NCBI GenBank assembly: GCA_017467185.1
Contig: JAFTSS010000085.1
Location: 1 to 64,000 of the forward strand
Direction of reading: 5' to 3'
Source: Paludibacteraceae bacterium
GTDB taxonomy: Bacteria > Bacteroidota > Bacteroidia > Bacteroidales > Paludibacteraceae
DNA length: 64,000 nucleotides
The notes below the pieces were generated by a model. The model made no database searches, was not told the origin of the DNA, and saw only the letters and a program-made list of their open reading frames with translations. The translations under genes and the position numbers were made by a program. Shown here piece after piece: positions 4,976 through 47,812 of the stretch. Numbering within the stretch: the first letter of the stretch is position 1; every line of letters begins with the position of its first letter.

Positions 4976-5368
4976 CGATATAACTTTATAGCACACGGAA
5001 AACACGGATGACACAGAATTTGATTATTTATCTCCCACAGATTTTTTAACAAGATTATTGCTGTGCTCGGCAATTAGAGTAAACTCTATTGCTCTCGCTT
5101 ATCGCAATAATTCACAGATTTCTCAGATATTTTTCTTTCTTTACTATTCGATTTTTATCAAGATTTTGTTTATATTCAGCATAACCCAAATAAATTTGGC
5201 TTCTGCTCTCACTTATCACAAAATTCGCTCTTTTGCTACGCAAAAATAACTTCGTTGAAATTGCTTTCGTTCGGCAACTGAAGTAAACTTCGTTGCTCTC
5301 ACTTATTCGCAATTTTCGCTCTACTGATAACACGGATGCCATACGGCGTTTTATATCGAACGGACGTT
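4966..5368 (+). mobile_element. MITE-like element family B, copy 1 (18-bp TIR AACGTGAGTTCGATATAA / TTATATCGAACGGACGTT), enlarged by an internal duplication
   Basis: Its TIRs are shared with the copies at 14209 and 46690. The flanking hexamer TATTTA is duplicated. The right TIR supplies the last codons and stop of ispG. Confidence 0.65.
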
Positions 5369-6076
5369 ATTTATAAGCTCTAAAAGTTTTTCGATTGCTT
5401 CTTCTTCGGGGATGTTTTTCATTACGCATTCTTTGCCTTTGTAGAGTGAGACTTTACCCATTCCGGCTCCGATGTAGCCAAAGTCGGCATCTGCCATTTC
5501 GCCTGGTCCGTTGACGATACAGCCCATGACGGCGATTTTGAGGCCTACGAAACCTTGTGTGGCTTCTTTGACTTGACGGACTACACGTGGTAGGTCAAAT
5601 TTTGTACGCCCGCAAGATGGACATGAGGTGTATTCGGTTTTGCTGATGCGACAGCGTGATGATTGTAGGATTTCGAATGCTATGTCGTTGACTTGTTCGG
5701 CTGTGATGAATTCAGATTTGTTTGTGAGCCAAATGCCATCGATTAGGCCGTCGATTAGGTATGGTCCGAAGAAAGCTGCTGCGTGTATTTGAAGTGTTTC
5801 TAAATCGTCGAGTTCGAAGTGTTTTTTTAGGATTATTGGTTTGTCTGTTTTGAGTAATTCGTTGAAATTTGATAAATCTTCAACAATTGCAATATTTCCT
5901 TCTAAAGTCATAATCTCATCTGCAGTATAATCAGGTTTTAGTAGGGTGTTAAGTTGTTCGTTTGCTATTACAACTACGGGATTATTACCACCTATTTTGT
6001 CTATTGCAATGCTTTTGCGACGAGAATATTCAGTCTTTAATTTTGTGTTATCAATTTTGCATTTTGCATTTTGCAT
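5351..6076 (-). CDS. ispG: 4-hydroxy-3-methylbut-2-enyl diphosphate synthase, C-terminal segment (insert domain plus 4Fe-4S domain)
   Basis: 241 aa carrying the conserved C-terminal CPSCGRT...KIAVMGCIVNGPGE motif region of IspG/GcpE. It begins with its own ATG inside the heptamer tract. Confidence 0.8.
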   Translation of the reverse strand: MQNAKCKIDNTKLKTEYSRRKSIAIDKIGGNNPVVVIANEQLNTLLKPDYTADEIMTLEGNIAIVEDLSNFNELLKTDKPIILKKHFELDDLETLQIHAAAFFGPYLIDGLIDGIWLTNKSEFITAEQVNDIAFEILQSSRCRISKTEYTSCPSCGRTKFDLPRVVRQVKEATQGFVGLKIAVMGCIVNGPGEMADADFGYIGAGMGKVSLYKGKECVMKNIPEEEAIEKLLELINNVRSI

Positions 6077-6909
6077 TCTACATAGTCAACAAGTTTGCGA
6101 GCTACGGGGATTTCGGCTTCAGGGGCTTCGGATAGGGATACGCGGATTGTGTCGCCAATGCCGTCGTGGAGGAGAGTGCCGATGCCGACTGCTGATTTTA
6201 TGCGTCCTTCGTCGTCGCTGCCAGCTTCGGTTACGCCGAGATGAAGTGGATAGTTTTTGCCTTTGGCGTCCATCATTTGTACTAATAGGCGTACTGCGTA
6301 AATCATTACGCGTGTGTTAGAGGCTTTGACAGAGAGGATTAGGTTGGTAAAGCCTTCTTGCTCGCAGAGTTCGATGAACTCCATACATGAAGTGGCAAGT
6401 CCGAGAGGTGTGTTGCCGTAACGGCTCATGATGCGAGGAGAGAGTGAACCGTGGTTGACGCCGATGCGAATGGCTGTGCCTTTGTCTTTGCAGATAGAGA
6501 GCAGTGTGTGTAGTTTTTCGCGGATACGGCGTAGTTCGTCGTTCCATTCTTCATCGGTGTAGTCGCCATGCTTGCCAGTGACGAAGTTGCCGGGATTGAT
6601 GCGCACTTTTTCAACTAATTGTGCAGCGACCTCAGCTACGTTGGCGTTGAAGTGGATGTCGGCAACGAGGGGTAGGTCGATGCCTTCGGTGCGTAACGCT
6701 TCTTTTATTTTGCCGAGATTTTCGGCTTCTTTTGTGCCTTGTGTGGTGTAGCGGAGTAGTTCTGTGCCAGCTTCGAGACAGTGTTTTGCTTGAGCCACAG
6801 AGGCCTCGATATCGTTAGTGTCGGTGTTGGCCATTGTTTGTATGCGGATAGGGTTGTTGCCACCGATGCGCAAGTTGCCAACTTGAATTTCTTTTGTTTG
6901 TCGTCTCAT
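6037..6909 (-). CDS. ispG: 4-hydroxy-3-methylbut-2-enyl diphosphate synthase, N-terminal TIM-barrel segment (frame-separated from the C-terminal segment)
   Basis: 290 aa with N-terminus MRRQTKEIQVGNLRIGGNNPIRIQTMANTDT, typical of IspG. It ends 40 nt inside the next ORF in a different frame. Confidence 0.8.
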   Translation of the reverse strand: MRRQTKEIQVGNLRIGGNNPIRIQTMANTDTNDIEASVAQAKHCLEAGTELLRYTTQGTKEAENLGKIKEALRTEGIDLPLVADIHFNANVAEVAAQLVEKVRINPGNFVTGKHGDYTDEEWNDELRRIREKLHTLLSICKDKGTAIRIGVNHGSLSPRIMSRYGNTPLGLATSCMEFIELCEQEGFTNLILSVKASNTRVMIYAVRLLVQMMDAKGKNYPLHLGVTEAGSDDEGRIKSAVGIGTLLHDGIGDTIRVSLSEAPEAEIPVARKLVDYVECKMQNAKLITQN

Positions 6910-13582: not shown

Positions 13583-13785
13583 TATTTATCTCTATCTTGT
13601 TTGATTGGACCAACTTCGTAACCAAATAGATTTAATACTTGGTTCAATTTGTCAAGACGTAAAGTCTCTTTACCTTGTTCTAAATCACGAATAAAACGTA
13701 ATCCAACTCCTGATTTTTCGGATAAGTCAATTTGTGTTAGGTGATATTGCTTGCGCATTGTTTTTATAAATTCTGCAATTGTCAT
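13582..13785 (-). CDS. XRE-family helix-turn-helix antitoxin (HipB-like)
   Basis: 67 aa containing the HTH LTQIDLSEKSGVGLRFIRDLEQGK. Confidence 0.75.
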   Translation of the reverse strand: MTIAEFIKTMRKQYHLTQIDLSEKSGVGLRFIRDLEQGKETLRLDKLNQVLNLFGYEVGPIKQDRDK

Positions 13786-13806
13786 AGTTGTTTTTTTGTC
13801 GATTAT

Positions 13807-13906
13807 TATACCTTATAGGGTATAATTTATTGTTTAATTATTTATTTTATACCCGAAAAGGTATATTTTTGTTCTTATTTGGTGATATTATACCCGTTCG
13901 GGGTTA
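13807..13906. promoter_or_regulatory. three palindromic operator-like sites TATACC-N6-GGTATA upstream of the hipB-like gene
   Basis: tataccttatagggtata (13807-13824), tatacccgaaaaggtata (13848-13865) and the imperfect tatacccgttcggggtta (13889-13906). Confidence 0.5.
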
Positions 13907-14208
13907 TTTTGTGTTGCAAAGGTAGAAATTATTTTTTGAATATCCAATTATTCTAAAATATTTTTTTATTGGTGGTCTGGTAAAAAATAAAGCAATTATT
14001 CAAACTGTTAATAAACAAAGGGGAGATAAGATAATCTTATGAGAGGGGGAGTTTTTAGTTCGACGTTTTCAACGTCGTAGAGTGTGGGGAGTTTTCTTCT
14101 TCTGCAGGTAATTTTTGCGATATCGCTTCGCTTCTCGCAAAAATCACCCGCAGTTACGCATAATTCGACGTTTTCAACGTCGTTGTATCTTGAATTCTCC
14201 TTAATTTT

Positions 14209-14452
14209 AACGTGAGTTCGATATAACTTTATAGCACACGGAGCCAACGGTCTTGAGCCTTGGCGAAAATGCACAGATGACACGGAGATTTTTCATTACA
14301 TACCCCTCTGTTCAGCAGACATATTGAGCGGACGCACGAGCCGTGCGTCCCTACAATGAGGAGGATTTTTGCCGAATTCGCTCTTTTGCTACGCAAAAAA
14401 CGCTCTACGGATTGTACGGATGCCATACGGCATTTTATATCGAACTGACGTT
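14209..14452 (+). mobile_element. MITE-like element family B, copy 2 (244 bp, 18-bp TIRs, flanked by duplicated TTAATTTTA)
   Basis: TIRs aacgtgagttcgatataa / ttatatcgaactgacgtt. It contains an internal palindrome gacgcacgagccgtgcgtc. Confidence 0.7.
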
Positions 14453-14592
14453 AATTTTATTGTGAAATTATAAATATTTTAATTCGCATAGGTTATTTCG
14501 TTTATATGAATTATCATAATATAATTTTTAGCGGACAGTAATAATTTTTTAATGATGGATATTAGAACTTTGTTTTGAATTTATAGAAATCC

Positions 14593-14632
14593 TTTTACAT
14601 AAACAACGGCTGAACCGCATTGCGATTCAGCC
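14593..14632 (-). terminator. long perfect hairpin aaacaacggctgaa-loop-ttcagccgttgttt downstream of the ppiD-like gene
   Basis: 14-bp perfect stem. There is no strong U-tract, which is common in Bacteroidetes. Confidence 0.4.
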
Positions 14633-14658
14633 GTTGTTTATGTAGGATATTATTTTGA

Positions 14659-16761: not shown

Positions 16762-16960
16762 TTTTTTATTTATATTATTTGTTTTTTATTTTTGTTTTGT
16801 GTTTGTGTTATTGTGCTGATATATAGCAAAATATGTGCAAAATATGACCCATTTGTGCCCTATTTTACATGATAATTTTTCAAGATGCGAAGTTACGAAA
16901 AAAGTTTATATATACGAAATATTTTGTAATAAAATTTATAAAGTATTTATTGTTAGTGTA

Positions 16961-18226
16961 TTATGCTTTATTGTTAGTTATAAGTTTTACTAAATCAATA
17001 CGATTGTTGTGGGCTTGCATTATTTTGAATGTATAGTTTTCGATTTCGATAGTGTCGTTTAGTTTTGGGAATTTTTGATAGTGATGCAAGATATATCCTG
17101 CTATTGTAACATAGTTGTCTGATTCTGGAATATCGAAGTCGAATTTTGAATTAGCTGTATCTATCTCTAATCGTCCAGATAGGATGTATTCATTGTCTGC
17201 AATTTGGCGAGCTACCCATTCGCGGTTATCGTGTTCGTCTTCTATTTCGCCAAATATCTCTTCGATGATATCTTCGAGAGTAACAATACCAGCTGTACCT
17301 CCAAATTCGTCAACAACAACGGCAATACTTTTCTTTTCTTGCATGAATATGTCCATCAATTTGTTAGCAGCCATAGTTTCTGGAACGATAGGTAATGGAC
17401 GTATCTGTTTTTTCCAATCTTCAGGATTTTTGAATAGGTCGTTAGAGTGGAAATAACCTATGATATTGTCGATGCTTTCGCGATAGATTAGTATTTTTGA
17501 GTATCCTGTATTTGTAAATGTATTGCGAAGGTCTATTAACGTAGTTCCTTCTTCTGGTAGAGCTGTTATTTCGGTGCGAGGTATGGCGCAATCGCGAAGT
17601 TTTACTTCAGAGAAATCAAGTGCGTTTTGGAATATTTTCACATCGTGTTCAATCTCTTCTTGACTGTCAGAACCTTCTATAGACTCGTTGATTAAATAGT
17701 CGAGGTCAACTTTGCTGAGTTCGTGACTTTCTTGTTGAGGATTATAGAGTTTGAATAGGCGAAGTATGTTTTTAGAGAGGAATGTGGTAAATATTGTAAT
17801 AGGGTAGAGTAGTATATATATAATGTACATGATGGGTGAAAATACATTGAGCCATATATTAGGACGGCTTTTAAATATCATTTTAGGAATGAATTCGCCG
17901 GTGAAAAGTACAATGATTGTAGCAATGATTGTTTGTATAATCATTATTACAAAATCGGATGTAACGATATATTGTTTTATGATTCCAGTGAGCAGATTTG
18001 CCATTTGGATACTATAGACAACAAGGGCAATGTTGTTGCCTACGAGCATTGTAGATATATATTGTTCGCTATGGTGATAGAAGAAATCAACTATTTTGGA
18101 TGTTAGCGAATTGGATTTTTTGTCTATTTCAAAGCGTAGTTTATTGGATGAGACAAAAGCTATTTCCATTCCAGAAAATAGCGCAGAAAATATTAATGAT
18201 ATGGCTATAGCCCAATAATTGACCAT
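16961..18226 (-). CDS. CorC/HlyC-family transporter (DUF21-CBS pair-CorC_HlyC), GldE-like
   Basis: 421 aa with N-terminal TM helices (DUF21), CBS domains and a C-terminal transporter-associated domain. Confidence 0.8.
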   Translation of the reverse strand: MVNYWAIAISLIFSALFSGMEIAFVSSNKLRFEIDKKSNSLTSKIVDFFYHHSEQYISTMLVGNNIALVVYSIQMANLLTGIIKQYIVTSDFVIMIIQTIIATIIVLFTGEFIPKMIFKSRPNIWLNVFSPIMYIIYILLYPITIFTTFLSKNILRLFKLYNPQQESHELSKVDLDYLINESIEGSDSQEEIEHDVKIFQNALDFSEVKLRDCAIPRTEITALPEEGTTLIDLRNTFTNTGYSKILIYRESIDNIIGYFHSNDLFKNPEDWKKQIRPLPIVPETMAANKLMDIFMQEKKSIAVVVDEFGGTAGIVTLEDIIEEIFGEIEDEHDNREWVARQIADNEYILSGRLEIDTANSKFDFDIPESDNYVTIAGYILHHYQKFPKLNDTIEIENYTFKIMQAHNNRIDLVKLITNNKA

Positions 18227-18233
18227 TATTATT

Positions 18234-18690
18234 TAGTTTAGAGTTAAAAGTTTAGAGTTAAGAGTTAAGAGTTAAGAGTTTAGAGTTAAGAGTTAAGAGT
18301 TTAGTGTTTAGAGTTAAGAGTTAAGAGTTTAGTGTTTAGGGTTAAGAGTTTAGTGTTTAGAGTTAAGAGTTTAGTGTTTAGAGTTTAGTGTTTAGAGTTA
18401 AGAGTTTAGCGTTTAGAGTTAAGAGTTAAGAATTAAGAATTAAAAATTAAAACATTTAATTCCACATTCCACATTCCTCACTCCTCATTCCTCACTCCTC
18501 ATTCCTCATTCCTCATTCCCCATTCCTCATTCCCCATTCCTCATTCCCCATTCCTCATTCTCCATTCCTCATTCCCCATTCCTCATTCCACATTCCACAT
18601 TCCACATTCCTCATTCCTCATTCCCCATTCCTCATTCCACATTACTCATTCCACATTACTCATTCCACATTCCACATTCCTCATTCCTCA
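18234..18690 (+). repeat. two abutting heptamer microsatellite arrays, about 31 x (GAGTTAA/GAGTTTA/GTGTTTA) then about 33 x (CATTCCT/CATTCCA/CATTCCC)
   Basis: Direct inspection. The arrays fill the whole gap between the lptC-like stop and the gldE-like start. Confidence 0.9.
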
Positions 18691-19265
18691 ATAGGTATTG
18701 TGCCTTTTGGTTGGCGTATGCTGTATCGGCTGAAGGTTTGATTAGATTCGAACCCGATGCCGAGTATTTTTCTGTCTTTTTGGATGATTGTTATTGCAGA
18801 GTCGCTATATACGCGCTCTTCTTTTTGGTCCCAATATAGTTCATTGGTATAAAATTCCTCTTGGTTGAGATTTGTTGCCTCAATGTTGTCATTGAGTTTC
18901 CATAGTTCTAATTTGCTGTAATAAATTGCTTTATCGCATTCTATTTCAGCATCAATGTTGTAGTTTTCGTCGAAGCGTTCAAAACGTAATCCGTTTGGAA
19001 AATCCCAATATGGGGTATCGGCTTTTTCATAGACGTACCAATCTGGAGCTATAATTCTGTAACGGATTATACCAGAGTCGGATACGATGGTTGTTATTGA
19101 ATCGGCATACACCTGAGGTGTATGTTTTATATCAGTTATGGAAGATGTCATGTCGTGCTTTGTTTGGCACGAAAAAAATAATGCACAATGCAAAATGCAC
19201 AATGCACAAAAAAAATTAGATACGAGATGCGAGACACGAGATGCGAGACACGAGATGTGAGGCAT
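18681..19265 (-). CDS. hypothetical protein, possibly LptC-family periplasmic LPS-export protein. The start is uncertain (alternative ATG at 19151).
   Basis: 194 aa. The N-terminal 38 aa are encoded by an (ATGCACA)n heptamer tract. Conserved Bacteroides synteny (coaX - OMP - TPR - lptC - gldE - ppiD) supports the call. Confidence 0.35.
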   Translation of the reverse strand: MPHISCLASRVSHLVSNFFCALCILHCALFFSCQTKHDMTSSITDIKHTPQVYADSITTIVSDSGIIRYRIIAPDWYVYEKADTPYWDFPNGLRFERFDENYNIDAEIECDKAIYYSKLELWKLNDNIEATNLNQEEFYTNELYWDQKEERVYSDSAITIIQKDRKILGIGFESNQTFSRYSIRQPKGTIPIEE

Positions 19266-24868: not shown

Positions 24869-25037
24869 AGTAATTTTCAATTTTTGCGTTAAGCGAGAGC
24901 AATGAAAATTATTTCAATTGCCGAGTGGAGCAAAAATCACGACCGAAGGGAGTAATTCTCAATTTTTGCGATAAGCGAGAGCAATGAAAATTATTTCAAT
25001 TGCCGAGCGGAGCAAAAATCACGACCGAAGGGAGTAA
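24869..25037 (+). repeat. tandem duplication of an approximately 84-bp unit (aattttcaatttttgcgttaagcgagagcaatgaaaattatttcaattgccgag...gaagggagta)
   Basis: Two copies about 93% identical. They are flanked by (TAGTTAT)4 on the left and (AACACTC)n on the right. Confidence 0.8.
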
Positions 25038-25140
25038 CTCTCCAACTCTAAACACTCAACACTCAACATTCAACACTCAACACTCAACACTCAACACTCA
25101 ACTCTAAACACTAAACTCTCAACACTAAACTTTATATATT

Positions 25141-26629: not shown

Positions 26630-27094
26630 ATGATACAGAAAGATATTATTACTAATTTGGTTATCAGCAAATTAGCTGATACAAGATATTTTTTGGTTGA
26701 TGTTACAGTTTCGGCTGATAATGTGATAAAGGTAGAAATTGATGCCGAGGAGGGTGTTGATATTGACTTTTGTGTTGAACTAAATCGTTTTATTGAAGCT
26801 AACTTTGATCGTGAGGTGGAGGATTATGAGCTTGAAGTAGGTTCGGCAGGTCTTACATCTCCGTTTAAGGTGAAACGTCAATACGAAAAAAATCTAAACA
26901 AAGAGGTTGAAGTGTTAGAGGCGAATGGTATTAAGCATGAGGGCGTGTTGGTAGAGGTAGATGATGAAAAATTCGCTATTGACGAGACTAAAATGATACG
27001 TAAAGAAGGTGATAAGCGCAAAAAGCCTTATACAGAGCGTATAGAATTTAAGTATTCAGAAATAAAATATACAAAATATAAATTTAAAATTTAA
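26630..27094 (+). CDS. rimP: ribosome maturation factor RimP
   Basis: 154 aa in the conserved position before nusA. Confidence 0.8.
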   Translation: MIQKDIITNLVISKLADTRYFLVDVTVSADNVIKVEIDAEEGVDIDFCVELNRFIEANFDREVEDYELEVGSAGLTSPFKVKRQYEKNLNKEVEVLEANGIKHEGVLVEVDDEKFAIDETKMIRKEGDKRKKPYTERIEFKYSEIKYTKYKFKI

Positions 27095-27180
27095 TTTGAA
27101 ATTTTAAATTTGAAATTTTAAATCTTCGTTATGATTTTCAACTTTCAACTTTCAATTTTCAATTTTCAACTTTAAACGTA

Positions 27181-28431: not shown

Positions 28432-28509
28432 AATAAATAGTTATGAATTAGTATTTTTTATCTCTAATTCGTTAATAACTAATAATTAGTAACTAATAAC
28501 TAAAAATAT

Positions 28510-31630: not shown

Positions 31631-31700
31631 TAGTTTTTTTATAATTTCTATAGCCACTATAGCTACTATAGCCACTATAGTTTCTATAGCCACTATAACT
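31631..31700 (+). repeat. nonamer array (CTATAGCCA/CTATAGCTA)x~6 upstream of cvpA
   Basis: Direct inspection. The same family occurs at 47706-47790, 42141-42170 and 11745-11830. Confidence 0.8.
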
Positions 31701-36997: not shown

Positions 36998-37762
36998 ATG
37001 AAAAAAACACTTTTTGGTCTCATTTTTTTTGTGATAAGCATATCACTTTTTGCGCAAGAAAATTATCTTTACGGATCGTTTATTTCTAATGGTCATACAC
37101 TCCCATATCGTTATCTTGAGCCACAAAATATTAAGGTAAACAAAAAATACCCAGTTGTACTTTTTCTTCACGGCGCAGGCGAGCGAGGCATCGACAATGA
37201 ACAGCAACTTCTACATTGTTCAGGTCAATTTCTTAACCCCGACATTCGTGATAAATATCCCGCATACGTATTTTTTCCACAAGCTCCTACAGGTGCTTTT
37301 TGGTCTATTCCTGACCGACTTACAGAATTAAGTCAGGATATGTTTGCTGCCGTAAGTGAGCCAAGTTGGCAATTGCAAACTATCAAAGCAATGGTCGATT
37401 CAATTGCTCAGCTCCCAAATGTTGACCCTAAACGAATATACATAATGGGTATATCTATGGGCGCAATGGCAACATACGAACTTTGCTGGCGTTATCCTTA
37501 TCTGTTTGCTGCTGCAGTTCCTATTTGTGGCGGAGCAGACACCAATCGTTTAGTCAATGCTGCCGAAATACCTTGGCGCATATATCATGGCGATGCCGAT
37601 AAAGTAGTACCTGTAACATTCTCGCGTACAGCATATCGTGCGCTGAAAAATGCAGGAGCCAAAATTGTGTATCGCGAATTTGCAGGTTGTACCCACAACT
37701 CATGGAATCCCGCATTCAACGACCCTGACCTATTCCCATGGCTTTTTAAACAAAAAAAATAG
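36998..37762 (+). CDS. secreted alpha/beta-fold hydrolase (putative esterase)
   Basis: 254 aa with a signal peptide and a nucleophile elbow GISMG. It has the length and pattern of the phospholipase/carboxylesterase family. Confidence 0.65.
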   Translation: MKKTLFGLIFFVISISLFAQENYLYGSFISNGHTLPYRYLEPQNIKVNKKYPVVLFLHGAGERGIDNEQQLLHCSGQFLNPDIRDKYPAYVFFPQAPTGAFWSIPDRLTELSQDMFAAVSEPSWQLQTIKAMVDSIAQLPNVDPKRIYIMGISMGAMATYELCWRYPYLFAAAVPICGGADTNRLVNAAEIPWRIYHGDADKVVPVTFSRTAYRALKNAGAKIVYREFAGCTHNSWNPAFNDPDLFPWLFKQKK

Positions 37763-37766
37763 AAAA

Positions 37767-38987
37767 ATGAAATATTTCTTATACATATTGCTATTCTTTT
37801 GCTCATTCCCCATCGTAGCGCAAAATGCAGTAGGGACTGTCATTGACGAAGATGGAGAACCAATTCCATACGCATCAGTTTATGTAAAAAACGATCCGAT
37901 TGGAGGTACTATGACCGATATGGATGGGCGTTATAATTTGAAAATAGATTCTTTAATTGCATCCGACGATGAAGTTATATTCTCTTTCATCGGTTATCGT
38001 ACAGAGGAGTTTTCTGTAGCTTCAATAATTTCAGATTCCAATTTTACAGTTACTCTTGTCGAACAGCCAATTATGCTCGAAGGAGCAGTCGTAAAAGCCA
38101 AAATATCTCGTAAAGAGAGCACAAAACTAAAAAAAGAAGCCCTTAAAAAATTCGTAGAGCAGATGGCTAACGATTTTCCTAAACGGACAGCCGAATATCC
38201 TGTTTTTTCAATGTATAATGGTTCGCAAGACGAACGTCAGCTCATTCATCATGAGATTGTTGGCACAATAAAAGAATATCCTTTTGATAATAAACGAGGT
38301 GGTGATTCTGTAGCACTTGTTGTGAAATCAGTAAAAGAATTTACGACAGATGAGGCAAAAACAGCTTACGATATGTTTAATGAAATAGCAGACGAACGTA
38401 TCAATAATCCTAAAAAGAAGAAAAAGAAAAATAAACTCACCTACACTAAACGCGATTTAGATTATCAAGCACTTCGTATGCATCGTTTCCTTTGGGGTGG
38501 GCCTACAGGTTCGTTGATTGATATGTTGAACATCAAGAAACCTGCAAAATGGGATTATACTATGATTGGCGATGATGCTGTATTGACTTATACAGAAAAA
38601 GAAAACTATATGGGTATAGTAAAAGGTGAATTGCAACTACATTTTTATATCGACCCTGTTACTTTTCAGATAAATAAAATAGCCCAAAGTCTTTCTGGCG
38701 AATTGCATATACCATTTGGTTATAAACTTAAGGACGAAGAACTTGAATTTATCAATGCTCTTCAGTTTGGTCACGATACACTCGACCGTTACCGTGTTCG
38801 TCATGCCTATGTCGATGTACTTCGCAATGTTTTTTTTCGTCGCACACAAGAGGGTGATGTAGTTATTCGTGAAAAAAACCTTGAAGTTCGTGGCGATATA
38901 ATTGACACTAAAAAGAAAAAACTAAGTTATAGTGCCGAAGCAAAAGCAATAGTTTCTGGTACTCCAAAAATAACAAAAAATGATTAG
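37767..38987 (+). CDS. hypothetical secreted protein with N-terminal carboxypeptidase-regulatory-like (CarbopepD_reg) domain
   Basis: Signal peptide followed by VIDEDGEPIPYASVYV...DGRYNL. The ORF-track start at 37650 overlaps the preceding gene. Confidence 0.45.
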   Translation: MKYFLYILLFFCSFPIVAQNAVGTVIDEDGEPIPYASVYVKNDPIGGTMTDMDGRYNLKIDSLIASDDEVIFSFIGYRTEEFSVASIISDSNFTVTLVEQPIMLEGAVVKAKISRKESTKLKKEALKKFVEQMANDFPKRTAEYPVFSMYNGSQDERQLIHHEIVGTIKEYPFDNKRGGDSVALVVKSVKEFTTDEAKTAYDMFNEIADERINNPKKKKKKNKLTYTKRDLDYQALRMHRFLWGGPTGSLIDMLNIKKPAKWDYTMIGDDAVLTYTEKENYMGIVKGELQLHFYIDPVTFQINKIAQSLSGELHIPFGYKLKDEELEFINALQFGHDTLDRYRVRHAYVDVLRNVFFRRTQEGDVVIREKNLEVRGDIIDTKKKKLSYSAEAKAIVSGTPKITKND

Positions 38988-39055
38988 ATATTTTTTTTCG
39001 GTTTTTAGAAATTTTGTGTATCTTTGCACTATTAAAACCGCAAAAAATATCTTTT

Positions 39056-39538
39056 ATGAAAAAATTGTATTTATTATTGAATTTTGTCTTGGCATTCACT
39101 ATTATGGCGAAAGCCGAGACTTCTTTATTTATTGATTATCTTTCTGATGACGATGCCGAAATAGCATTAAATGTAATTGGTCGCATCGAAATTAAAGATG
39201 AAGTTTTCCGTCTTATTAGTGTTGAGGGAACCGAATTAGCCTCTTGTAATCTTTATGAAGTGAAAAAAATTTCATTTGTCAAAAACTCTACTGAGACTAA
39301 CCTTGTTGATAATAACTCTAATTCTATAGTTATTTTTCCTAATCCAACACAAGAAGTTTTATTTATCAATGGTTTAGAATCTAACGATAAGGTTCGTTTG
39401 TTCGACCTTCAAGGTAAATTGATTTTAACATCTGTTGCCGATACTGATGGTAATTTGCAAGTGTCAGTGTCGCAACTGCCTGACGGAGTTTATCTTCTTC
39501 AAGTAGGAGTAGAAATAATGAAATTTGTTAAACAGTAA
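39056..39538 (+). CDS. small secreted protein with T9SS C-terminal sorting domain
   Basis: Signal peptide, with a Por_Secre_tail-like C-terminus (VIFPNPTQEVLFI...GVYLLQV). Confidence 0.5.
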   Translation: MKKLYLLLNFVLAFTIMAKAETSLFIDYLSDDDAEIALNVIGRIEIKDEVFRLISVEGTELASCNLYEVKKISFVKNSTETNLVDNNSNSIVIFPNPTQEVLFINGLESNDKVRLFDLQGKLILTSVADTDGNLQVSVSQLPDGVYLLQVGVEIMKFVKQ

Positions 39539-39546
39539 AACTAATC

Positions 39547-40626
39547 TTGATTATGAAACGAATAACTACAATTATATCTTTTTTATTGCTTGCTTTTTTT
39601 AGCTACTCGCAAATGTATGTTTGGCAAAATGGCGCATTAGTTGGCGATTATGCTGAAGGAGTTATTGATAGTGTTAAATTTGTAAAACCAGAACCACAAG
39701 TGGAGACTCTTCGTAATGAGCCTACCGAAGGTGGATTGTTAAAAGCATTTTCTATAGCCGATGGTGCCACTGTTTTTTTCTCACAAGGCAATCTTCGTTA
39801 TAAACCATCAACTAAAGAGTGGGCTTTTGCTTCTGAGCAAACAAGTCGAGTAGGTGCGGGAAATGCATCTATCGCCGAAGAACATACAGGTTGGATCGAC
39901 CTTTTTGGTTGGGGTACAAGTGGTTATAACAACGTAGCGCCATACCTCTCAGTTCAAGACTATACTAAATACGCTAATGTGCAAAACATTGCAGGCACAA
40001 ATTACGATTGGGGCGTTTATAATAAGATTTCTAATGGTGGCAATGAAGCTGGTTTGTGGCGTACGCTTACTGCTGACGAGTGGTTATATCTTTTCTACTC
40101 TCGCGAAAATGCCGACTCTCTTTTTGCTTTTGGTGTTGTAAATAGTGTCAAGGGACTTATTCTTTTGCCTGATAATTGGCAACAACCAGAGGGTGTTGAT
40201 TTTTACCCAAGTACCACTAAAGGTTTGATGCCTGAAGGTAAATATTTTTGGAATATGGCTTCTGATAATTACGAGCATAATACATATACCAAAGCTCAAT
40301 GGACAAAAATGGAAGAGGCAGGAGCTGTTTTCCTTCCTGCAGCAGGTTATCGCAGAGGCACTGAGGTAGAAGAGCTTAACGAATATGGAGCTTATTGGAC
40401 TGCATCTGGTCGAACTGACAATTTTGCTTATCGTACTATTTTTTATTCTTCTATTCTTAGCCCTGGTGGTAGCAATATTACCTATTATTACGGCTATTCA
40501 GTTCGCCTTGTGCAAGACGCCGTGAAAGTTATTCAACCACAAGGCGAAATGATTGTTTATAAAACAAATTCCGAAATAGATAAATACTTTGTTAATCAAG
40601 TAGATAGTATTACATATAAAAAATAA
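39547..40626 (+). CDS. hypothetical secreted protein, FISUMP-like (Fibrobacter major paralogous) domain candidate
   Basis: Signal peptide plus the motifs GAYWTASG and GYSVRLVQD, resembling the TIGR02145 domain. Confidence 0.4.
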   Translation: MIMKRITTIISFLLLAFFSYSQMYVWQNGALVGDYAEGVIDSVKFVKPEPQVETLRNEPTEGGLLKAFSIADGATVFFSQGNLRYKPSTKEWAFASEQTSRVGAGNASIAEEHTGWIDLFGWGTSGYNNVAPYLSVQDYTKYANVQNIAGTNYDWGVYNKISNGGNEAGLWRTLTADEWLYLFYSRENADSLFAFGVVNSVKGLILLPDNWQQPEGVDFYPSTTKGLMPEGKYFWNMASDNYEHNTYTKAQWTKMEEAGAVFLPAAGYRRGTEVEELNEYGAYWTASGRTDNFAYRTIFYSSILSPGGSNITYYYGYSVRLVQDAVKVIQPQGEMIVYKTNSEIDKYFVNQVDSITYKK

Positions 40627-40687
40627 TTACTCATTCCTTAGGTTTTGGAGAGCAATGTAGCTTACTTTAGTTGCTGGTGAAAAATAA

Positions 40688-42142
40688 TTCCTCATTCATC
40701 ATTCCTCATTCCTCATTTTTAATATTTTTACCTTCATATTTTCAATCATTCTTCTCGTATTAGGCTATGTAGTATATGGTCGCATAGTCGCTCGAGTTTT
40801 TGGTGCAGACTCCAATCGTGTAACACCAGCCATAGCCAATCCCGATGGTGTTGACTATGTATCAATGCCATGGTGGAAAATTTTCCTTATTCAATTTCTT
40901 AATATTGCAGGGCTTGGACCTATTTTTGGCGCAATTATGGGAATCATGTTTGGTCCATCTGCATTTCTTTGGATTGTATTTGGCTCTATATTTGGTGGTG
41001 CTGTACATGATTATCTTTCGGGTATGTTGTCTATGCGACGCAATGGTGCATCATTGCCTGAATTAGTGGGTGAACAACTCGGTATGGGGGTTAAGCAATT
41101 TATGCGCGTTTTTTCGCTTTTGTTGATGGTGCTTGTTGGTGCTGTTTTTGTAAGCGGTCCTGCAGGTTTGCTTGCTGGTATGGTGAAATCTATTAGCGTT
41201 ACTTGGTGGATTGTAATTATTTTCGGCTATTATATGCTTGCAACTTTGCTCCCTATCGATAAACTCATTGGTAAAATCTATCCATTGTTCGGATTTGCTC
41301 TACTTTTTATGGCTGTAGGTATTTTGGTTTCTTTGTTTATTAACAACGCACCAATACCTGAAATTACATCTGGACTTGCAAGCCAACATCCACAAGGTTA
41401 TTCAATTTTTCCAATGATGTTTGTCTCTATTGCATGTGGGGCAGTCTCTGGTTTTCATGCTACTCAGTCGCCTATGATGGCACGCTGTATGACGAATGAA
41501 AAATATGGTCGTCCATGTTTTTATGGAGCTATGATTGCCGAAGGCATTGTTGCTCTTATTTGGGCAGCAGCAGCCTCTTCGTTCTTCGGTTCAGTTGGTG
41601 GATTGCAAGAGTATGTTGCCTCTTTACCTGCTACTGCAAACAAGGCTGCTGAGGTTGTTAATCTTATATCTAACACTTGGTTAGGTAAATTTGGTGGTAT
41701 TTTGGCCGTGTTGGGTGTTGTGGCTGCTCCTATTACTTCGGGCGATACAGCTCTCCGTTCAGCTCGCCTTATTGCTGCCGATTTTTTACATATTGATCAA
41801 AAACCAATTCTTAAGCGTCTTATGGTGGCAGTACCTCTTTTCGTGGGTACATTCATATTATTACAAATCAATTTTGATGTAATTTGGCGTTATTTTGCTT
41901 GGAGCAATCAAACACTTTCTGTCTTTACTTTTTGGGCATTGACAGTATATCTTTATAAGGAAAAACGTTGTTATTGGATAACTTTAATTCCTGCTCTATT
42001 TATGACTGCTGTATGTTCTGCCTATATTATGGTTGCCCCAGAAGGTTTCGGTCTCCCACTATATATAGGCTATATCGTCGCCGCAGTTGTTTGTATAGTT
42101 TTTACTCTTTTATTTATTCGTTTCACAAAAAATAAACTATAG
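40688..42142 (+). CDS. cstA: carbon starvation protein CstA; no canonical start, and the 5' end overlaps the (TTCCTCA)n array
   Basis: CstA homology (LGYVVYGRIVARVFGADSNRVTPAIANPDGVDYV...) starts upstream of the first ATG (40865) and runs back to the stop at 40685 inside the heptamer array. Confidence 0.7.
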   Translation, partial: FLIHHSSFLIFNIFTFIFSIILLVLGYVVYGRIVARVFGADSNRVTPAIANPDGVDYVSMPWWKIFLIQFLNIAGLGPIFGAIMGIMFGPSAFLWIVFGSIFGGAVHDYLSGMLSMRRNGASLPELVGEQLGMGVKQFMRVFSLLLMVLVGAVFVSGPAGLLAGMVKSISVTWWIVIIFGYYMLATLLPIDKLIGKIYPLFGFALLFMAVGILVSLFINNAPIPEITSGLASQHPQGYSIFPMMFVSIACGAVSGFHATQSPMMARCMTNEKYGRPCFYGAMIAEGIVALIWAAAASSFFGSVGGLQEYVASLPATANKAAEVVNLISNTWLGKFGGILAVLGVVAAPITSGDTALRSARLIAADFLHIDQKPILKRLMVAVPLFVGTFILLQINFDVIWRYFAWSNQTLSVFTFWALTVYLYKEKRCYWITLIPALFMTAVCSAYIMVAPEGFGLPLYIGYIVAAVVCIVFTLLFIRFTKNKL

Positions 42143-42214
42143 CTACTATAGTTCCTATAGGTTCTATAATTCCTCATTCCTCATTTCTCATTTCTCATTT
42201 CTCATTCCTCATTC
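42141..42214 (+). repeat. nonamer (CTATAGNNC) then heptamer (CATTCCT/CATTTCT)x7 array immediately 5' of the helicase start
   Basis: Direct inspection. Confidence 0.8.
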
Positions 42215-44728
42215 TTGATAATGTCTATTTACGAAATTGCCGAAGAATTTATTCAGTTGACTAATTGCTCTGTTTTCCTGACAGGTAAAGCTGGTACGGG
42301 TAAGACTACTATGCTTCGGCAGATTCGTGATGTGGCATTCAAGCAAACAGCCGTTGTTGCTCCTACTGGTGTGGCGGCTATCAATGCTGGTGGTACGACA
42401 ATTCATTCCTTTTTTCAACTCCCTTTTTCTCCATTTATACCTACTATTGAGGCAAAAAAATCGTTTATTGCAAAGCAACAGGTCAATAATGTTCGCCGTA
42501 AAATATATCGCGAGCTCGAATTGCTTATCATCGACGAGGTTTCTATGGTGCGTGCCGACGTACTTGATGCAATTGACACAGTATTACGTCATTATCGTTT
42601 CCGCCCAAATGAGCCATTTGGGGGAGTCCAAGTAGTTTTCATTGGCGACATGTACCAATTGCCTCCTGTCTGCGTGGGTGAAGAGTGGGATCTATTGCGT
42701 CGTTATTACGAAACACCATATTTCTTTCATTCTCAAGTCATTCGTCAAGATCCCCCGATATATATCGAACTTGATAAAATTTTTCGTCAAAGCAATCAGC
42801 AGTTTATCAATTTGCTTAACGAAGTTCGCAATAATCAGCTTACTCCCGACACTTTCCGCTTGCTGAATCATTGTTATCAGCCTAATTTTCGTAATGTTGA
42901 TGAATATATCACTCTCACAACGCATAATGCCTCTGCCGATGCAATCAACAATGACGAATTAGCAAAAATCGATGCACCATATTATAAATTTATGGCTCAT
43001 ATCGACCGCGATTTTCCTGAACGAATTTTCCCAACCGAGATAGAACTTATCCTTAAATTAGGCGCAAAAGTCATGTTCATTGCCAATGACATGGCTCAAC
43101 CTCGTCGTTATTATAATGGAAAAATTGGTGAAATCACCGAGATAAATAATAATGAAATTTGGGTTACATGTGAAGGTGAAACAGAGGCGATTAAAGTCTC
43201 GCTCGAAGTGTGGGAAAACAAGTCCTATACTATCGACCCTAAAACCAATCAGATAGAAGAAAAACTTTTGGGTACTTTTACTCAATATCCTCTGCGTTTG
43301 GCTTGGGCTATTACTATTCACAAAAGTCAAGGTCTTACATTTGATAGGGTAGTGATTGATGCTGCCGCAGCCTTTGCTTCTGGGCAGGTTTATGTCGCAT
43401 TATCGCGTTGTCGCTCATTAGATGGAATTGTTTTAACCTCTCAAATCAACCCTAATTCCCTTGCTGTTGACCCTCAAATTGTGCGGTATAGCGAGCAGCG
43501 TCTGCCTATTGTTGAGCTTGAGCGTCAAGTTGAATTATTTAAATCTCGTTATAGTATTCAACTTCTTGCTAAGTTGTTTAGCCTCGAAGATTTAATGTCG
43601 CATACATTCAGTTTTGTAAATTATATCAAAACTGTTTTAGATGATTTCAACGAAGATACTGCGCCTTATCTCGATGAAATATTAAAACGTGTGAATGATT
43701 TATATGCTGTAGCACAACGTTTTGTGGCACAACTTTTATCTTTCAATCCTAAATTAGACATAGTTCGTATTGCTGAACGTGTAAAAGCTGCTTCTGGCTA
43801 TTTTGTTCCTCAACTTGATGATTTATTGGTTCTTATAGAATCATCTCCTGCTATAACCGAAAGCAAAGTAGAGGCTCAAGATTATATTGATCGTTTACAA
43901 GCTGTGTTTGAAATTGCGTCACAACTTCGTCATATCATTGCGGGCATTGCCGATGATATCTCCGTAATTAACTATTTCGATGTAAAACAGTCATATAAAG
44001 TTCCGCCGTTTAAGGTGAAAGCCTACGTTGTAGAACGTGAAGTGAAGATGTTAAAGACCGAGCATCCAAAACTTTATAAAATGCTTGCTACTTGGCGTAA
44101 TGAGTATTGCAAAGAGAATAACATTCCTGCATTTCAAATGTTTAGCAATGCTACTTTGGTCGAAGTATCAAATCGTCTTCCTATCGAATTAGAGTCGCTA
44201 ATTAAAATTAAAGGTTTTGGAAAAATAAAAATCCAACGATTTGGTAAAGAGTGTGTTGATATTGTGCGAATTTATTGTCGTGAAAATGGTATCGATGCCT
44301 CATCTCAGTCTGATATTGCTTTTGAATCAGAGTCTGATTATGGTAATGCCGCAGAAGAAGGTAGAGACGCAATAAATTGCGTCTCAAAAAACAAGAAAAG
44401 TAGGCGCAAGGAAAAAGAAAAAATAGAAAAAATACCAACCAAAGAAATAACGTTATCTCTTATTAATCAGGGAAAAACGTTACAAGAAATTGCCGACGAA
44501 CGAAGTCTTGTTTTAAGTACGATCTACACTCATTTGGCAAAACTCATACATGCAAAAAAAATCGACATCGCTCAATATGTCGATATCGATTTATTGGATA
44601 GGGTTATGTTGGTTCTCAATGAAACCCCTGAAATTTCTAATTCTGAACTATTCGAACGCCTCGAAGGTTCTGTAACATACGATGAATTAAAACTTATTCG
44701 AGCTCATCAACTTTCAAGTAATAATTAG
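42215..44728 (+). CDS. Pif1/RecD-like SF1B DNA helicase with C-terminal HRDC-like and HTH domains
   Basis: Walker A LTGKAGTGKTT, with helicase motifs throughout the first 450 aa. An HRDC-like region lies at aa 640-700 and a C-terminal HTH follows. Confidence 0.7.
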   Translation: MIMSIYEIAEEFIQLTNCSVFLTGKAGTGKTTMLRQIRDVAFKQTAVVAPTGVAAINAGGTTIHSFFQLPFSPFIPTIEAKKSFIAKQQVNNVRRKIYRELELLIIDEVSMVRADVLDAIDTVLRHYRFRPNEPFGGVQVVFIGDMYQLPPVCVGEEWDLLRRYYETPYFFHSQVIRQDPPIYIELDKIFRQSNQQFINLLNEVRNNQLTPDTFRLLNHCYQPNFRNVDEYITLTTHNASADAINNDELAKIDAPYYKFMAHIDRDFPERIFPTEIELILKLGAKVMFIANDMAQPRRYYNGKIGEITEINNNEIWVTCEGETEAIKVSLEVWENKSYTIDPKTNQIEEKLLGTFTQYPLRLAWAITIHKSQGLTFDRVVIDAAAAFASGQVYVALSRCRSLDGIVLTSQINPNSLAVDPQIVRYSEQRLPIVELERQVELFKSRYSIQLLAKLFSLEDLMSHTFSFVNYIKTVLDDFNEDTAPYLDEILKRVNDLYAVAQRFVAQLLSFNPKLDIVRIAERVKAASGYFVPQLDDLLVLIESSPAITESKVEAQDYIDRLQAVFEIASQLRHIIAGIADDISVINYFDVKQSYKVPPFKVKAYVVEREVKMLKTEHPKLYKMLATWRNEYCKENNIPAFQMFSNATLVEVSNRLPIELESLIKIKGFGKIKIQRFGKECVDIVRIYCRENGIDASSQSDIAFESESDYGNAAEEGRDAINCVSKNKKSRRKEKEKIEKIPTKEITLSLINQGKTLQEIADERSLVLSTIYTHLAKLIHAKKIDIAQYVDIDLLDRVMLVLNETPEISNSELFERLEGSVTYDELKLIRAHQLSSNN
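44361..44385. repeat. palindromic element gtagagacgcaataaattgcgtctc embedded in-frame in the helicase gene (encodes GRDAINCVS)
   Basis: Perfect 10-bp arms located in an inter-domain linker. Confidence 0.7.
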
Positions 44729-44899
44729 TCTTTTGTCCTATCATATTCTCCCCCTGTTTTAGGGGGAACTGACGCAGGAGAGAGAGCAGGACCAAGCCCG
44801 CTTGAGTTATGCCGAGCGACAAGGAAGTCGCCGAAGGCAATACCCGAAGGGGGAGGGGGTTCGACTATTGACTATTGACTATTGACCATTGACTATAGA

Positions 44900-45502
44900 C
44901 TATAAACTATCGTCTGTCGCTCGTTTTTTCATCTCTTCATTGTAGCAATGGCGGCAAATAGGCTCATATTTGTCAGTTTCACCCAATAATACTTGAGATT
45001 CGCCGGCAACTAAACGATGTGAAACGTATGCTGGAGCGCCACAACGTACGCATACAGCATGTACCTTTTGTATGTCATCAGCAATAGCCATCAATGCAGG
45101 CATTGGTCCGAATGGAGTGCAACGGAAGTCCATATCCAATCCCGCAATAATCACGCGATAACCGCTTTCTGACAATTTGCGGCATACGTCAACAATTCCA
45201 TTATCAAAAAATTGGGCCTCATCAATGCCTATAACATCAACATCACCAGCCATCAATAAAATATTTTGCGACGATTCTACTGGTGTCGATTGTATTGCAT
45301 TATGGTCATGGCTAACAACTTCAGTCTCTGAATAGCGGGTATCTATACAAGGCTTAAATATTTCAACTCTTTGTTTTGCAAATTTTGCACGTTTCAATCT
45401 GCGGAGCAACTCTTCTGTTTTTCCTGAAAACATAGACCCACAAATTACTTCTATACTTCCACGATGAGGACAACTGCAGTTAGCTGATTCAAAAAAATAC
45501 AT
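44900..45502 (-). CDS. tdk: thymidine kinase
   Basis: 200 aa with the P-loop [11 protein letters not shown] and zinc-ribbon cysteines CVRCG...CRHC. Confidence 0.85.
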
Positions 45503-45651
45503 ATATTATTGTTTTTTATTCGTAAAAAATTCGTACCTTTGTATTTGTAAAAATGAAGTAAGCTCAATATTTAAATTATGTAGAGGAGACCCATTTTTGC
45601 CATGCAAAGTTACAAAATAAATTTTAATAAAAATCATATTTTTCTTACAAA

Positions 45652-46617
45652 ATGAACAAAGAAGTTTTAGTTGCACTTATAGCAAAGGATGTCAATGAAT
45701 TACAAACTCTCACTGAAGGTCTTGATCAAATGGAGACTATTCCAGCACCTTATCTTCGTCTTGCTTTGGATAAGTCAAAAGCATTGACTACGAATCTTGA
45801 TAATCTTATCAATTATTTGAATAATAAAGAATTAGAGGACGCTGCAGAAGCTCAACGTCAGGCTGAATTAGAGGCTGCAAGAGCCGAAGAAGAAGCACGT
45901 AAAGCCGAAGAAGAAGCACGTAGAGTCGAAGAAGAAGCACGTAGAGCAGAGGAAGAAGCACGCCAAGCCGAATTAGCACGTATTGCCGAAGAGCAAGAAG
46001 CTTTGCTTCGAGCTCAAGAACTCGAACGTGAGCGTCAAGCTGAGGAACGCCGTAAAGCTGAAGCTGAAATTGCTCGACAAGTTGCCGCACTTGAAGCTGC
46101 CCGTCAATTAGAACTTGAAGAAAAAAGTCGTGTCTGCAACGAGCAAAACGAAGCAGAAAATAAAATAACGATGGAAACTTCAGAGGAAAAATCTATAGCC
46201 TCTACAGAAAATATAGATTCTATAGCTCCTACAGCTCCTGTAGAAACTACTGCTCCCACAACCTCAATCGTTGGTGCCATAGCCGAAAATCAACCTCAAA
46301 CATTAGCAGAATCCATCGAAACATCAGAATCCTTAGCCGATAAACTTGCAAAAACTGCTGATGATACTCTTGCTGAAGTTATTAACAATAAAAAAATAAT
46401 AGATTTAAAATCATCTATAACTCTTGGCGACCGTTTCCGTTTCCAACGCGAATTATTTGGTGGTAATGGCGAAAAAATGAATAAAGCAATATCTGACTTT
46501 AATTCATTTGAAACTATGACCGAAGCTCAATCTTATATAGCTAAAAACTTCGATTGGCCATTAGACAACGATGCTGTATCTGATTTCATTCAACTCCTTC
46601 AACGCCGCTATTTGTAA
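45652..46617 (+). CDS. hypothetical coiled-coil protein with in-frame 24-bp (8-aa EEARRAEE) tandem repeats
   Basis: 321 aa. Four or five repeats of gaagaagaagcacgtaga-like units fall at 45890-45985. Confidence 0.4.
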   Translation: MNKEVLVALIAKDVNELQTLTEGLDQMETIPAPYLRLALDKSKALTTNLDNLINYLNNKELEDAAEAQRQAELEAARAEEEARKAEEEARRVEEEARRAEEEARQAELARIAEEQEALLRAQELERERQAEERRKAEAEIARQVAALEAARQLELEEKSRVCNEQNEAENKITMETSEEKSIASTENIDSIAPTAPVETTAPTTSIVGAIAENQPQTLAESIETSESLADKLAKTADDTLAEVINNKKIIDLKSSITLGDRFRFQRELFGGNGEKMNKAISDFNSFETMTEAQSYIAKNFDWPLDNDAVSDFIQLLQRRYL

Positions 46618-46689
46618 TAAATATTTCAGAACTAAAGTAGGGACACGGCATGCCGTGTCCGTTGTTAAATGGAATAAAAACACTTAATT

Positions 46690-46942
46690 ACGTCAGTTCG
46701 ATATAAAAATCCGTATGGTATCCGTGTAATCTGTAGAACTATTTTTGCGTAGTAAAAGAGCGAATTCAGCCAAAATCCTTCTCAACGTAGGGACGCACGG
46801 CTCGTGCGTCCGCTTAATATGTCTGTAGAACGGAGGGGTATGTGATAAAAAAATCGTGTTATCCGTGCATTTTTCGCCAAGGCTCAAGACCGTTGGTTCC
46901 GTGTGAGATAAAAGTTATATCGAACTCTCGTTAATTATGAAT
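46690..46942 (-). mobile_element. MITE-like element family B, copy 3 (inverted orientation, flanked by duplicated TTAATTA)
   Basis: About 85% identical to copy 2 over the whole length, with the same 18-bp TIRs. Confidence 0.7.
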
Positions 46943-46950
46943 TTTGAATT

Positions 46951-47715
46951 ATGAATTGTGCATTATATTTAGTTCCTACCCCTGTAGGCAATCTCGAAGA
47001 CATAACATATCGTGCCTTACGAATTCTAAAGGAGGTGAATCTTGTGCTTGCCGAAGATACTCGCACTACGGGTATCCTTTTCAAACATTTTGATATTCAC
47101 ACTCCTATGGCATCGCATCACAAATTCAACGAACATAAAACCATAGCACATTTTGCCGATCGCATTCTCGCTGGCGAATCCATAGCATTAGTTAGCGATG
47201 CTGGCACTCCTGCAATTTCTGACCCTGGTTTTATGCTTGTGCGTGAGTGCGTTGCTCGTGGCATTAGAGTAGAGTGCCTCCCTGGAGCTACAGCTTTTGT
47301 ACCCGCATTAGTCGATTCAGGCTTGCCAACCGATCGTTTCTGTTTCGAAGGATTCTTGCCACAGAAAAAAGGCAGACAAACCAAATTACAATTGCTTATT
47401 TCTGAAGATCGTACAATGATTTTCTACGAATCCCCATACCGACTTGTAAAAACACTCCAACAATTTGCTGAAGTCTTTGGCTCAGAACGTCAAGCATCAG
47501 TTTCACGCGAAATATCTAAAATGTTCGAAGATACACAACGTGGTACGCTACAACAGCTTATCGAACATTTTACAGCCATACCACCCAAAGGCGAAATCGT
47601 AATTGTAGTAGCTGGAGCTAGTAGAGACGCAATACATTGCGTCTCAACAGGCGAAGATAAAGATGAAGAACAAGACCTCGCAAAAATCCGAAAATCCAAA
47701 AAACATAGATTATAG
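46951..47715 (+). CDS. rsmI: 16S rRNA (cytidine1402-2'-O)-methyltransferase
   Basis: 254 aa with N-terminus LYLVPTPVGNLEDITYRALRIL. It carries a C-terminal in-frame palindromic-element insertion. Confidence 0.85.
   Translation: MNCALYLVPTPVGNLEDITYRALRILKEVNLVLAEDTRTTGILFKHFDIHTPMASHHKFNEHKTIAHFADRILAGESIALVSDAGTPAISDPGFMLVRECVARGIRVECLPGATAFVPALVDSGLPTDRFCFEGFLPQKKGRQTKLQLLISEDRTMIFYESPYRLVKTLQQFAEVFGSERQASVSREISKMFEDTQRGTLQQLIEHFTAIPPKGEIVIVVAGASRDAIHCVSTGEDKDEEQDLAKIRKSKKHRL
47621..47645. repeat. palindromic element gtagagacgcaatacattgcgtctc embedded in-frame near the 3' end of rsmI (encodes SRDAIHCVS)
   Basis: Perfect 10-bp arms. Confidence 0.7.
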
Positions 47716-47812
47716 CGGCTATAGCAACTATAGCAACTATAGCGGCTATAGCAACTATAGTAACTATAGCAACTATAGTTGCTAATTCCTAACTCCTCAT
47801 TCCTCATTCTCA
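47706..47812 (+). repeat. nonamer array (CTATAGCAA/CTATAGCGG)x~9 followed by (CATTCCT) heptamers, abutting the HAD-hydrolase start codon
   Basis: Direct inspection. Confidence 0.85.

Follow-up and report, generated by a model that had tools for sequence, protein, structure and literature searches.

The first 64,000 nucleotides of contig JAFTSS010000085.1 from a Paludibacteraceae bacterium (assembly GCA_017467185.1), referred to here as the window, harbor a cstA gene which is preceded by a tandem array of the heptamer TTCCTCA and has no canonical start codon at its conserved N-terminus, which reads ATT. The remaining open reading frame (ORF) is intact. Here, we present a comparative analysis of the start region of this gene, of the repeats in front of it, and of the base by which the window departs from its relatives at this position.

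The cstA start region and its leader

Read directly, the frame of cstA is open from 40688, right after a TAA codon at 40685-40687, to a stop codon ending at 42142. Upstream of the ATG at 40865 the frame contains no ATG, GTG, or TTG, and the array stands in front of it, as a first-pass annotation of this DNA had stated; the in-frame stop that it had placed inside the array lies immediately before it. The 59 open codons upstream of 40865 comprise 47 codons of CstA (40724-40864) and 12 codons (40688-40723) covering the array and an 8-nt spacer. Homology to CstA, estimated earlier at about 60 codons above 40865, does continue upstream, but over these 47 codons only.

The open frame matches the Pfam family CstA (PF02554) with an E-value of 1.6e-57 and 196 bits against a cut-off of 27, and the profile begins at open-frame residue 15. 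In a search of about 5.8 billion proteins, the best homolog (P0001) was 472 aa long and 98% identical, and more than 60 further homologs had lengths of 470-473 aa. All 17 aligned orthologs carry a methionine in the column of open-frame residue 13, which corresponds to codon 40724-40726. This includes the distant ortholog P0078, called 6 aa longer with a differing extension. At the DNA level, an ATG is found at the position of the window's ATT in each of the 25 related loci. The relatives comprise contigs encoding the closest proteins and species-level relatives from GTDB genomes and JGI metagenomes; the organism itself is placed near Candidatus Aphodosoma, from animal gut samples, ruminant ones where the host is named. 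When these two genome and metagenome collections were scanned with the protein as guide, only relatives of at most 92% identity were returned, all with ATG, and a sequence search of PDB yielded no relative of CstA with a solved structure. Neither the Pfam match nor the alignment of the 17 orthologs contains a counterpart of the 12 codons 40688-40723.

According to a hydropathy scan, the conserved first transmembrane segment (TM1; FTFIFSIILLVLGYVVYG, from 40727) occupies open-frame residues 13-31, equivalent to conserved residues 1-19. It is this segment, and not the translated array as had been suggested, that forms the first hydrophobic helix; ortholog N-termini and copy-number changes that do not preserve the frame both argue against a translated array. 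Invariant alignment columns upstream of 40865 are G26, Y27, and G54-V58 in open-frame numbering. In the lineage of the window, cstA shows 13 synonymous private codon changes and a single non-synonymous one, the start codon. Because the private changes are synonymous apart from this codon, the gene bears no signs of decay.

Tandem Repeats Finder (TRF) reports the array as a period-7 repeat at 40687-40717 with 4.4 copies and a score of 55. Its units are TTCCTCA at 40688-40694, 40702-40708, and 40709-40715 and TTCATCA at 40695-40701, the deviation of the second unit being caused by a window-private C>A at 40698. With up to two mismatches, the doublet TTCCTCATTCCTCA occurs 50 times in the window compared to 0.49 times expected by chance. 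Among relatives, the array has 2 (locus L001), 4 (L164, L167, L169, and L171), 5 (L003), 12 (L168 and L170), or 13 copies (L002). The distance from its end to the ATG of cstA is 8 nt in same-species contigs, and the N-terminus is the same at every copy number. Since the array lies upstream of the start and its copies vary without change of the protein, it represents an untranslated, hypervariable leader or spacer repeat.

A 61-nt insert precedes the array in the window, L003, L164, and L168-L171 but not in L001 or L002. Its flanks carry AAAAATAA as an 8-nt direct repeat, and it holds a TTG at 40671 and a GTG at 40677, both outside the cstA frame, as well as the TAA that closes this frame. The insert aligns with elements at 5040-5150 (minus strand), 24869-25042, and 44767-44838 and with those located upstream of cstA in L008, L010, and L084. 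Judged from these alignments, it resembles a hairpin element of about 60-80 nt present elsewhere in the window, in shortened and degenerate form.

As a side observation, the aligned elements make up a family of imperfect hairpins of about 60-82 nt (TTTTTGCGATAAGCGAGAGCAAT...ATTGCCGAGCG.AGCAAAAAT), to which the segment 40627-40687 belongs and of which 24869-25042 contains two tandem copies; members upstream of cstA in L008, L010, and L084 are likewise of this family. The apical stem shows compensatory changes. The elements are embedded in or located beside heptamer arrays, their presence varies between strains, and they gave no match in Rfam. They may be of the MITE type (miniature transposable elements with inverted repeats) or of the repetitive extragenic palindromic (REP) type, or may represent a small RNA.

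For the cstA leader, a minimum free energy of -13.3 kcal/mol was calculated compared to a mean of -13.4 kcal/mol for shuffled sequences (z = 0.03), and the array is predicted to be unpaired. An Rfam search of the whole window detected one tRNA only and nothing in the cstA leader. Promoter motifs were sought by hand in the 61-nt insert as TTTG and TAnnTTTG, as Bacteroidetes promoters differ from those for which sigma-70 scanners are suited. This search for -33 and -7 elements found TTTG at 40644-40647 and TACTTTAG at 40663-40670 with a spacing of 15 nt, which is too poor to be called a promoter. The spacer in front of the start codon provides an A at position -3, a positive determinant of initiation in Bacteroidetes (PMC6847099).

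Insert, array, and spacer form an untranslated intergenic leader and not an N-terminal extension. That cstA starts at 40724, that the array is non-coding, and that the ATT is a single-base private difference is an anatomy (Table 1) which we hold with high confidence and regard as settled. For annotation, this means that cstA should begin at 40724 and not at 40865, with a flag such as "start codon ATT, probably base error or recent mutation", and that the gene should be flagged neither as truncated nor as having a novel N-terminus.

Table 1. Features of the cstA region in the window.
Feature	Position	Strand	Basis or remark
Upstream neighbor, hypothetical protein of 357 aa	39553..40626	+	ORF list; TAA 40624-40626
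Insert, 61 nt	40627..40687	+	Comparison with relatives and similar elements
Heptamer array (TTCCTCA)4	40688..40715	+	TRF; untranslated leader
Spacer TTTTTAAT, 8 nt	40716..40723	+	Identical in L002, L003, and L164-L171; A at -3
True start position of cstA, ATT	40724..40726	+	Ortholog proteins and DNA of relatives (ATG)
cstA coding sequence, 472 codons and stop, short Bacteroidales form of the CstA family	40724..42142	+	Orthologs, PF02554
First in-frame canonical ATG	40865..40867	+	ORF list; codon 48 when counted from the ortholog start
Second TTCCTCA/TTTCTCA array, 6.6 copies	42169..42214	+	Right after cstA, 6 nt before the helicase start at 42221; the next gene thus has a like layout

The protein of the upstream neighbor is found in identical form on 8 contigs, and its order relative to cstA is kept in all close relatives. 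In L001, L002, and L164, the genes are arranged as PF18962 protein, 357-aa gene, cstA, and PIF1-type helicase.

Base differences private to the window

Contigs of essentially the same strain from other samples were found via exact look-ups of proteins encoded next to cstA in the window. Scaffold_559 of ERZ28653727 equals the window over 37053-47228, and ERZ27256817 does so over 40457-47228, in both cases with the exception of positions 40698 and 40726. These two window-private bases are 29 nt apart, one inside the array (A; C in the others) and one in the start codon (T; G in the others). Neither occurs in the three independent metagenome assemblies ERZ28653727, ERZ28654512, and ERZ27256817, which are otherwise identical or nearly so. 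The loss of the canonical start is therefore due to a single substitution, G>T at 40726, and not to an indel error as had been considered. The string of the ATT allele was absent from all 185 fetched loci, and a DNA pattern scan of JGI metagenomes across the start codon, with N at its third position, gave no match. A donor locus from which the string could have been transferred by misassembly or conversion was also considered and rejected, as neither the rest of the window nor the 185 loci contain a similar string.

The comparison was extended to all 64 kb. Positions 1-19253 were compared with ERZ28018778, L182, and L183, and the part beyond 20.8 kb with three or more other assemblies. It revealed eight private differences, namely two 7-nt indels (6053 and 24842) and the six substitutions C>T at 25069, G>T at 27105, 27119, and 27129, C>A at 40698, and G>T at 40726. 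All eight are located in heptamer arrays or within 12 nt of them. The zone within 12 nt of period-7 arrays makes up 3.1% of the window and contains 6/6 substitutions (P about 9e-10). In addition, G:C>T:A changes account for five of the six, compared to a share of 8% among natural inter-strain differences (n = 219, against strain L002; P about 2e-5). The three G>T changes at 27105, 27119, and 27129 lie within 25 nt in the spacer upstream of nusA (start at 27181); two of them turn AAATTTG into AAATTTT and one is situated 6 nt beyond the array.

The indel at 6053 removes one GCAAAAT unit within ispG (gcpE; minus strand, 5351-6909), normally an essential gene. Its (GCAAAAT) array at 6054-6077 has 3 copies in the window and 4 in three same-strain assemblies. 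Due to the frameshift the gene is split into two ORFs (6037..6909 and 5351..6076), whereas the three other assemblies show a single ORF of 521 aa. Every unit of this array contains an ATG, which provides a restart codon for the downstream half.

Short-read scaffolds of the same strain break into stretches of N (N-gaps) at the arrays; like the ispG indel, this is a sign that arrays are difficult to assemble or error-prone. Such a gap is the cause of the 425-aa cstA call in L170, which was considered as a second start-codon mutant and rejected. Other assemblies also carry private changes at short repeats. In L169 and L173 (ERZ28654512), an 8-nt deletion at the equivalent of 40444-40451, in a period-8 repeat (CTATTCTT, 3 copies), cuts the 357-aa gene upstream of cstA to 299 aa, and split MscS-like and ArgRS genes are present on the same contig; three split genes are counted in L173. 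Private gene-breaking differences at short repeats thus recur among the assemblies of this organism.

Origin of the ATT codon

The explanation we favor, with modest confidence in anatomy and artifact taken jointly, is that G>T at 40726 arose as an error of consensus or assembly beside a repeat, and that the organism has an ordinary CstA initiated at ATG. A consensus error in the low-complexity sequence flanking the repeat would have turned the conserved ATG into ATT, and the organism would carry a normal CstA of 472 aa. We infer an artifact rather than a real mutation because the private differences are confined to arrays, because their spectrum is unnatural, and because the normally essential ispG is frameshifted. 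Several points weigh against this explanation. The base call at 40726 rests on the assembly consensus and not on reads. The arrays are truly hypervariable between strains, so that genuine slippage could account for the 7-nt indels at least, and G:C>T:A changes also arise commonly in vivo as spontaneous (oxidative) mutations. Moreover, the window resolves arrays which are left as gaps elsewhere and may be the better assembly, and the gene-breaking differences private to other same-strain assemblies, such as the three split genes of L173, could reflect real heterogeneity of the population.

It is possible, although less probable, that 40726 G>T is a real and very recent mutation in the strain or a sub-population, with cstA as a strong hypomorph or incipient pseudogene and the arrays as local mutation hot spots. 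The natural variation of the array between 2 and 13 copies and the unit-sized slippage in coding repeats elsewhere, as in the 8-nt deletion of L169 and L173, are in line with this, and the otherwise undamaged ORF fits a very recent event. AUU would keep the favorable A at -3 and the unstructured leader (PMC6847099), and initiation at AUU reaches about 0.1-3% of the AUG level in E. coli (bioRxiv 10.1101/063800). Full-length CstA would then be obtained only via near-cognate initiation at AUU. However, with zero substitutions outside the arrays in 64 kb, a more than 100-fold higher rate within arrays would be needed, and only two copy-number changes are seen despite this rate. The prevalence of G:C>T:A (5/6) is unlike natural divergence, and a frameshift in ispG is hard to accept in a viable, dominant strain. 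A further elaboration, in which the ATT is real and the array a control element, seems a long shot. In this case, the arrays of the lineage would be hot spots for slippage and flanking point mutation which switch genes such as cstA and ispG off, and a change from 4 to 5 copies would switch cstA back on by placing the upstream TTG and GTG in its frame. If true, a nutrient transporter of an uncultured gut Bacteroidales member would be under a phase switch with two layers, driven by repeats, within a genome-wide set of start-proximal heptamer arrays.

The remaining explanations assign a role to a start other than ATG 40724. Very unlikely is an array whose copy number acts as translational phase switch, a form of the earlier proposal that it sets the N-terminal frame. 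When the leader is rebuilt in silico, TTG 40671 and GTG 40677 come into the cstA frame without a stop only for n = 2, 5, or 8, so that the gain of one unit, from 4 copies to 5, would bring back a canonical start and yield CstA with 20 additional N-terminal aa. The array is demonstrably variable in length, and L003 with its 5 copies naturally has the open extension. Yet every relative, at any copy number, has its own ATG after the array, and with 2, 4, 5, 12, or 13 copies the N-terminus is unaltered; strains that have 4, 12, or 13 copies do not have the upstream TTG and GTG in frame and are intact nonetheless, L001 and L002 lack the insert bearing both codons, and an extension started at TTG or GTG is present in no retrieved homolog. 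A coincidence of frames is, moreover, expected by chance in one of three cases. Highly improbable is an evolved, regulated AUU start comparable to infC and pcnB, with low expression or control by IF3, for which the only point is a near-cognate codon in good context (unstructured leader and A at -3). Conservation of the ATT is lacking, as ATG is present in each of the 25 related loci, even in assemblies that differ from the window across this region at just two bases. As to the suspected non-canonical initiation, AUU is the sole route to full-length CstA from this sequence, but the codon is private and not evolved. Least probable of all is a true start of cstA at ATG 40865 with a shorter CstA of 425 aa. 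Although this is the first canonical start in the frame, the 47 upstream codons are conserved at the protein level in all orthologs, including TM1 and the invariant residues, and private changes in them are synonymous only; a product starting at this codon 48 would lack TM1, the invariant GY, and the DGVDYV loop. The alignment shows no ortholog starting at its equivalent, which bears out the earlier view that it is not the real N-terminus. An exact look-up of the 425-aa product found no record, and the one call of this length among relatives is the N-gap case of L170.

On balance, the anomaly flagged by the first-pass annotation is real in the sequence and probably ordinary in its cause, with G>T at 40726 as an artifact. 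As assembly-private differences cluster at heptamer arrays and can break genes such as cstA and ispG, calls of gene loss in such metagenome-assembled genomes need checks at the level of reads. Should the mutation be real, a strongly hypomorphic allele would result.

Heptamer arrays in the window and known repeat systems

The array in front of cstA is one of about 28 period-7 arrays with at least 2.9 copies in the 64 kb, equivalent to 4.4 per 10 kb. Other Aphodosoma-like loci have 1.6 per 10 kb and a distant set of 70 loci, comprising more distant Bacteroidota and a few other bacteria, has 0.12, so that the density of the window is about 3-fold that of sister Aphodosoma-like species and about 36-fold that of the distant set. 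Most arrays are intergenic. Twelve end at most 18 nt from a start codon, eight of these at most 10 nt, and 10 of the 12 are poor in G on the sense strand. Arrays of the TTCCTCA type stand next to the four start codons at 9253 (minus strand), 40724, 42221, and 47813, and the units are varied, including TTCCTCA, CTTAACT, CAACACT, TTTCAAC, TAATAAC, and others. Bacteroidetes, which lack Shine-Dalgarno sequences, prefer unstructured initiation regions (PMC6847099), and both the G-poor start-proximal arrays and the unstructured cstA leader fit this preference.

Examples are found at 9262-9360, 18235-18690, 25043-25130, 27080-27177, 28473-28503, 42169-42214, and 47785-47809, many of them ending 3-10 nt before a start. 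Two long arrays located back to back, (AGTTAAG) with about 30 copies at 18235-18443 and (ATTCCTC) with about 33 copies at 18459-18690, take up the spacer that separates an LptC-like gene from a CNNM/CorC gene. Further repeats in the window include 9-nt tandem units (CTATAGCNA) at 31648-31697, 42137-42174, and 47711-47778, which are situated right after stop codons and before heptamer arrays and whose length is likewise strain-dependent, with indels at 42147 and 47734-47778. A 253-nt direct repeat at 4471-4966 has two copies of 98% identity with inner 8-mer repeats, and a 33-nt repeat at 952-1036 has 2.6 copies.

The array is of a known kind, namely start-proximal heptamer simple-sequence repeats; of greater interest is how densely such arrays occur in this lineage of gut Bacteroidales. 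Unusually dense, strain-variable, G-poor heptamer arrays here precede start codons, and the phylum is one that makes no use of Shine-Dalgarno sequences. If they tune translation, the poorly understood class of start-proximal heptamer repeats would be extended to gut Bacteroidales.

In contingency loci such as Neisseria opa with its CTCTT repeats, the repeat follows the start codon and precedes the main part of the ORF. The cstA array resembles these in that its unit is not a multiple of 3, in its variable copy number, and in its position near the 5' end of a membrane-protein gene, but it lies upstream of the conserved start codon and outside the ORF. The AUU start of infC is conserved and autoregulatory. 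Together, infC and pcnB represent the two confirmed AUU starts in E. coli (bioRxiv 10.1101/063800), and cstA shares with them an AUU at the initiation position of a conserved ORF; unlike that of infC, its ATT is private to one assembly, with AUG in all relatives. In the case of H. influenzae hmw1A, a (ATCTTTC)n repeat in the 5' untranslated region lowers expression with increasing length through a hairpin cleaved by RNase III (PMC12721329). The pyrimidine-rich, copy-variable heptamer repeat upstream of the cstA start codon is similar, whereas the long hairpin of hmw1A, formed by repeats and a G-rich arm, has no equivalent in the cstA leader, which is without significant structure and without a G-rich partner.

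Among heptamer repeats, the cyanobacterial short tandemly repeated repetitive (STRR) sequences are related, and a related class is reportedly formed by the long simple-sequence repeats that Mrazek et al. 2007 described, a work also cited by MacGregor 2015. TAACTGA repeats, which occur just upstream of starts in Beggiatoaceae, cyanobacteria, and some few Bacteroidetes, Paludibacter among them (MacGregor 2015, PMC4679880), differ from the arrays of the window in that the latter have many varied units, none of them TAACTGA, a density of about 4.4 per 10 kb, and an uncultured gut Bacteroidales host. Both are composed of tandem 7-nt units which are overwhelmingly intergenic, in forward orientation, end a few nt before the start, and precede many unrelated genes, and the arrays of the window likewise differ between strains in steps of 7 nt. 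Furthermore, Paludibacter, as listed in PMC4679880, belongs to the same family as the host of the window.

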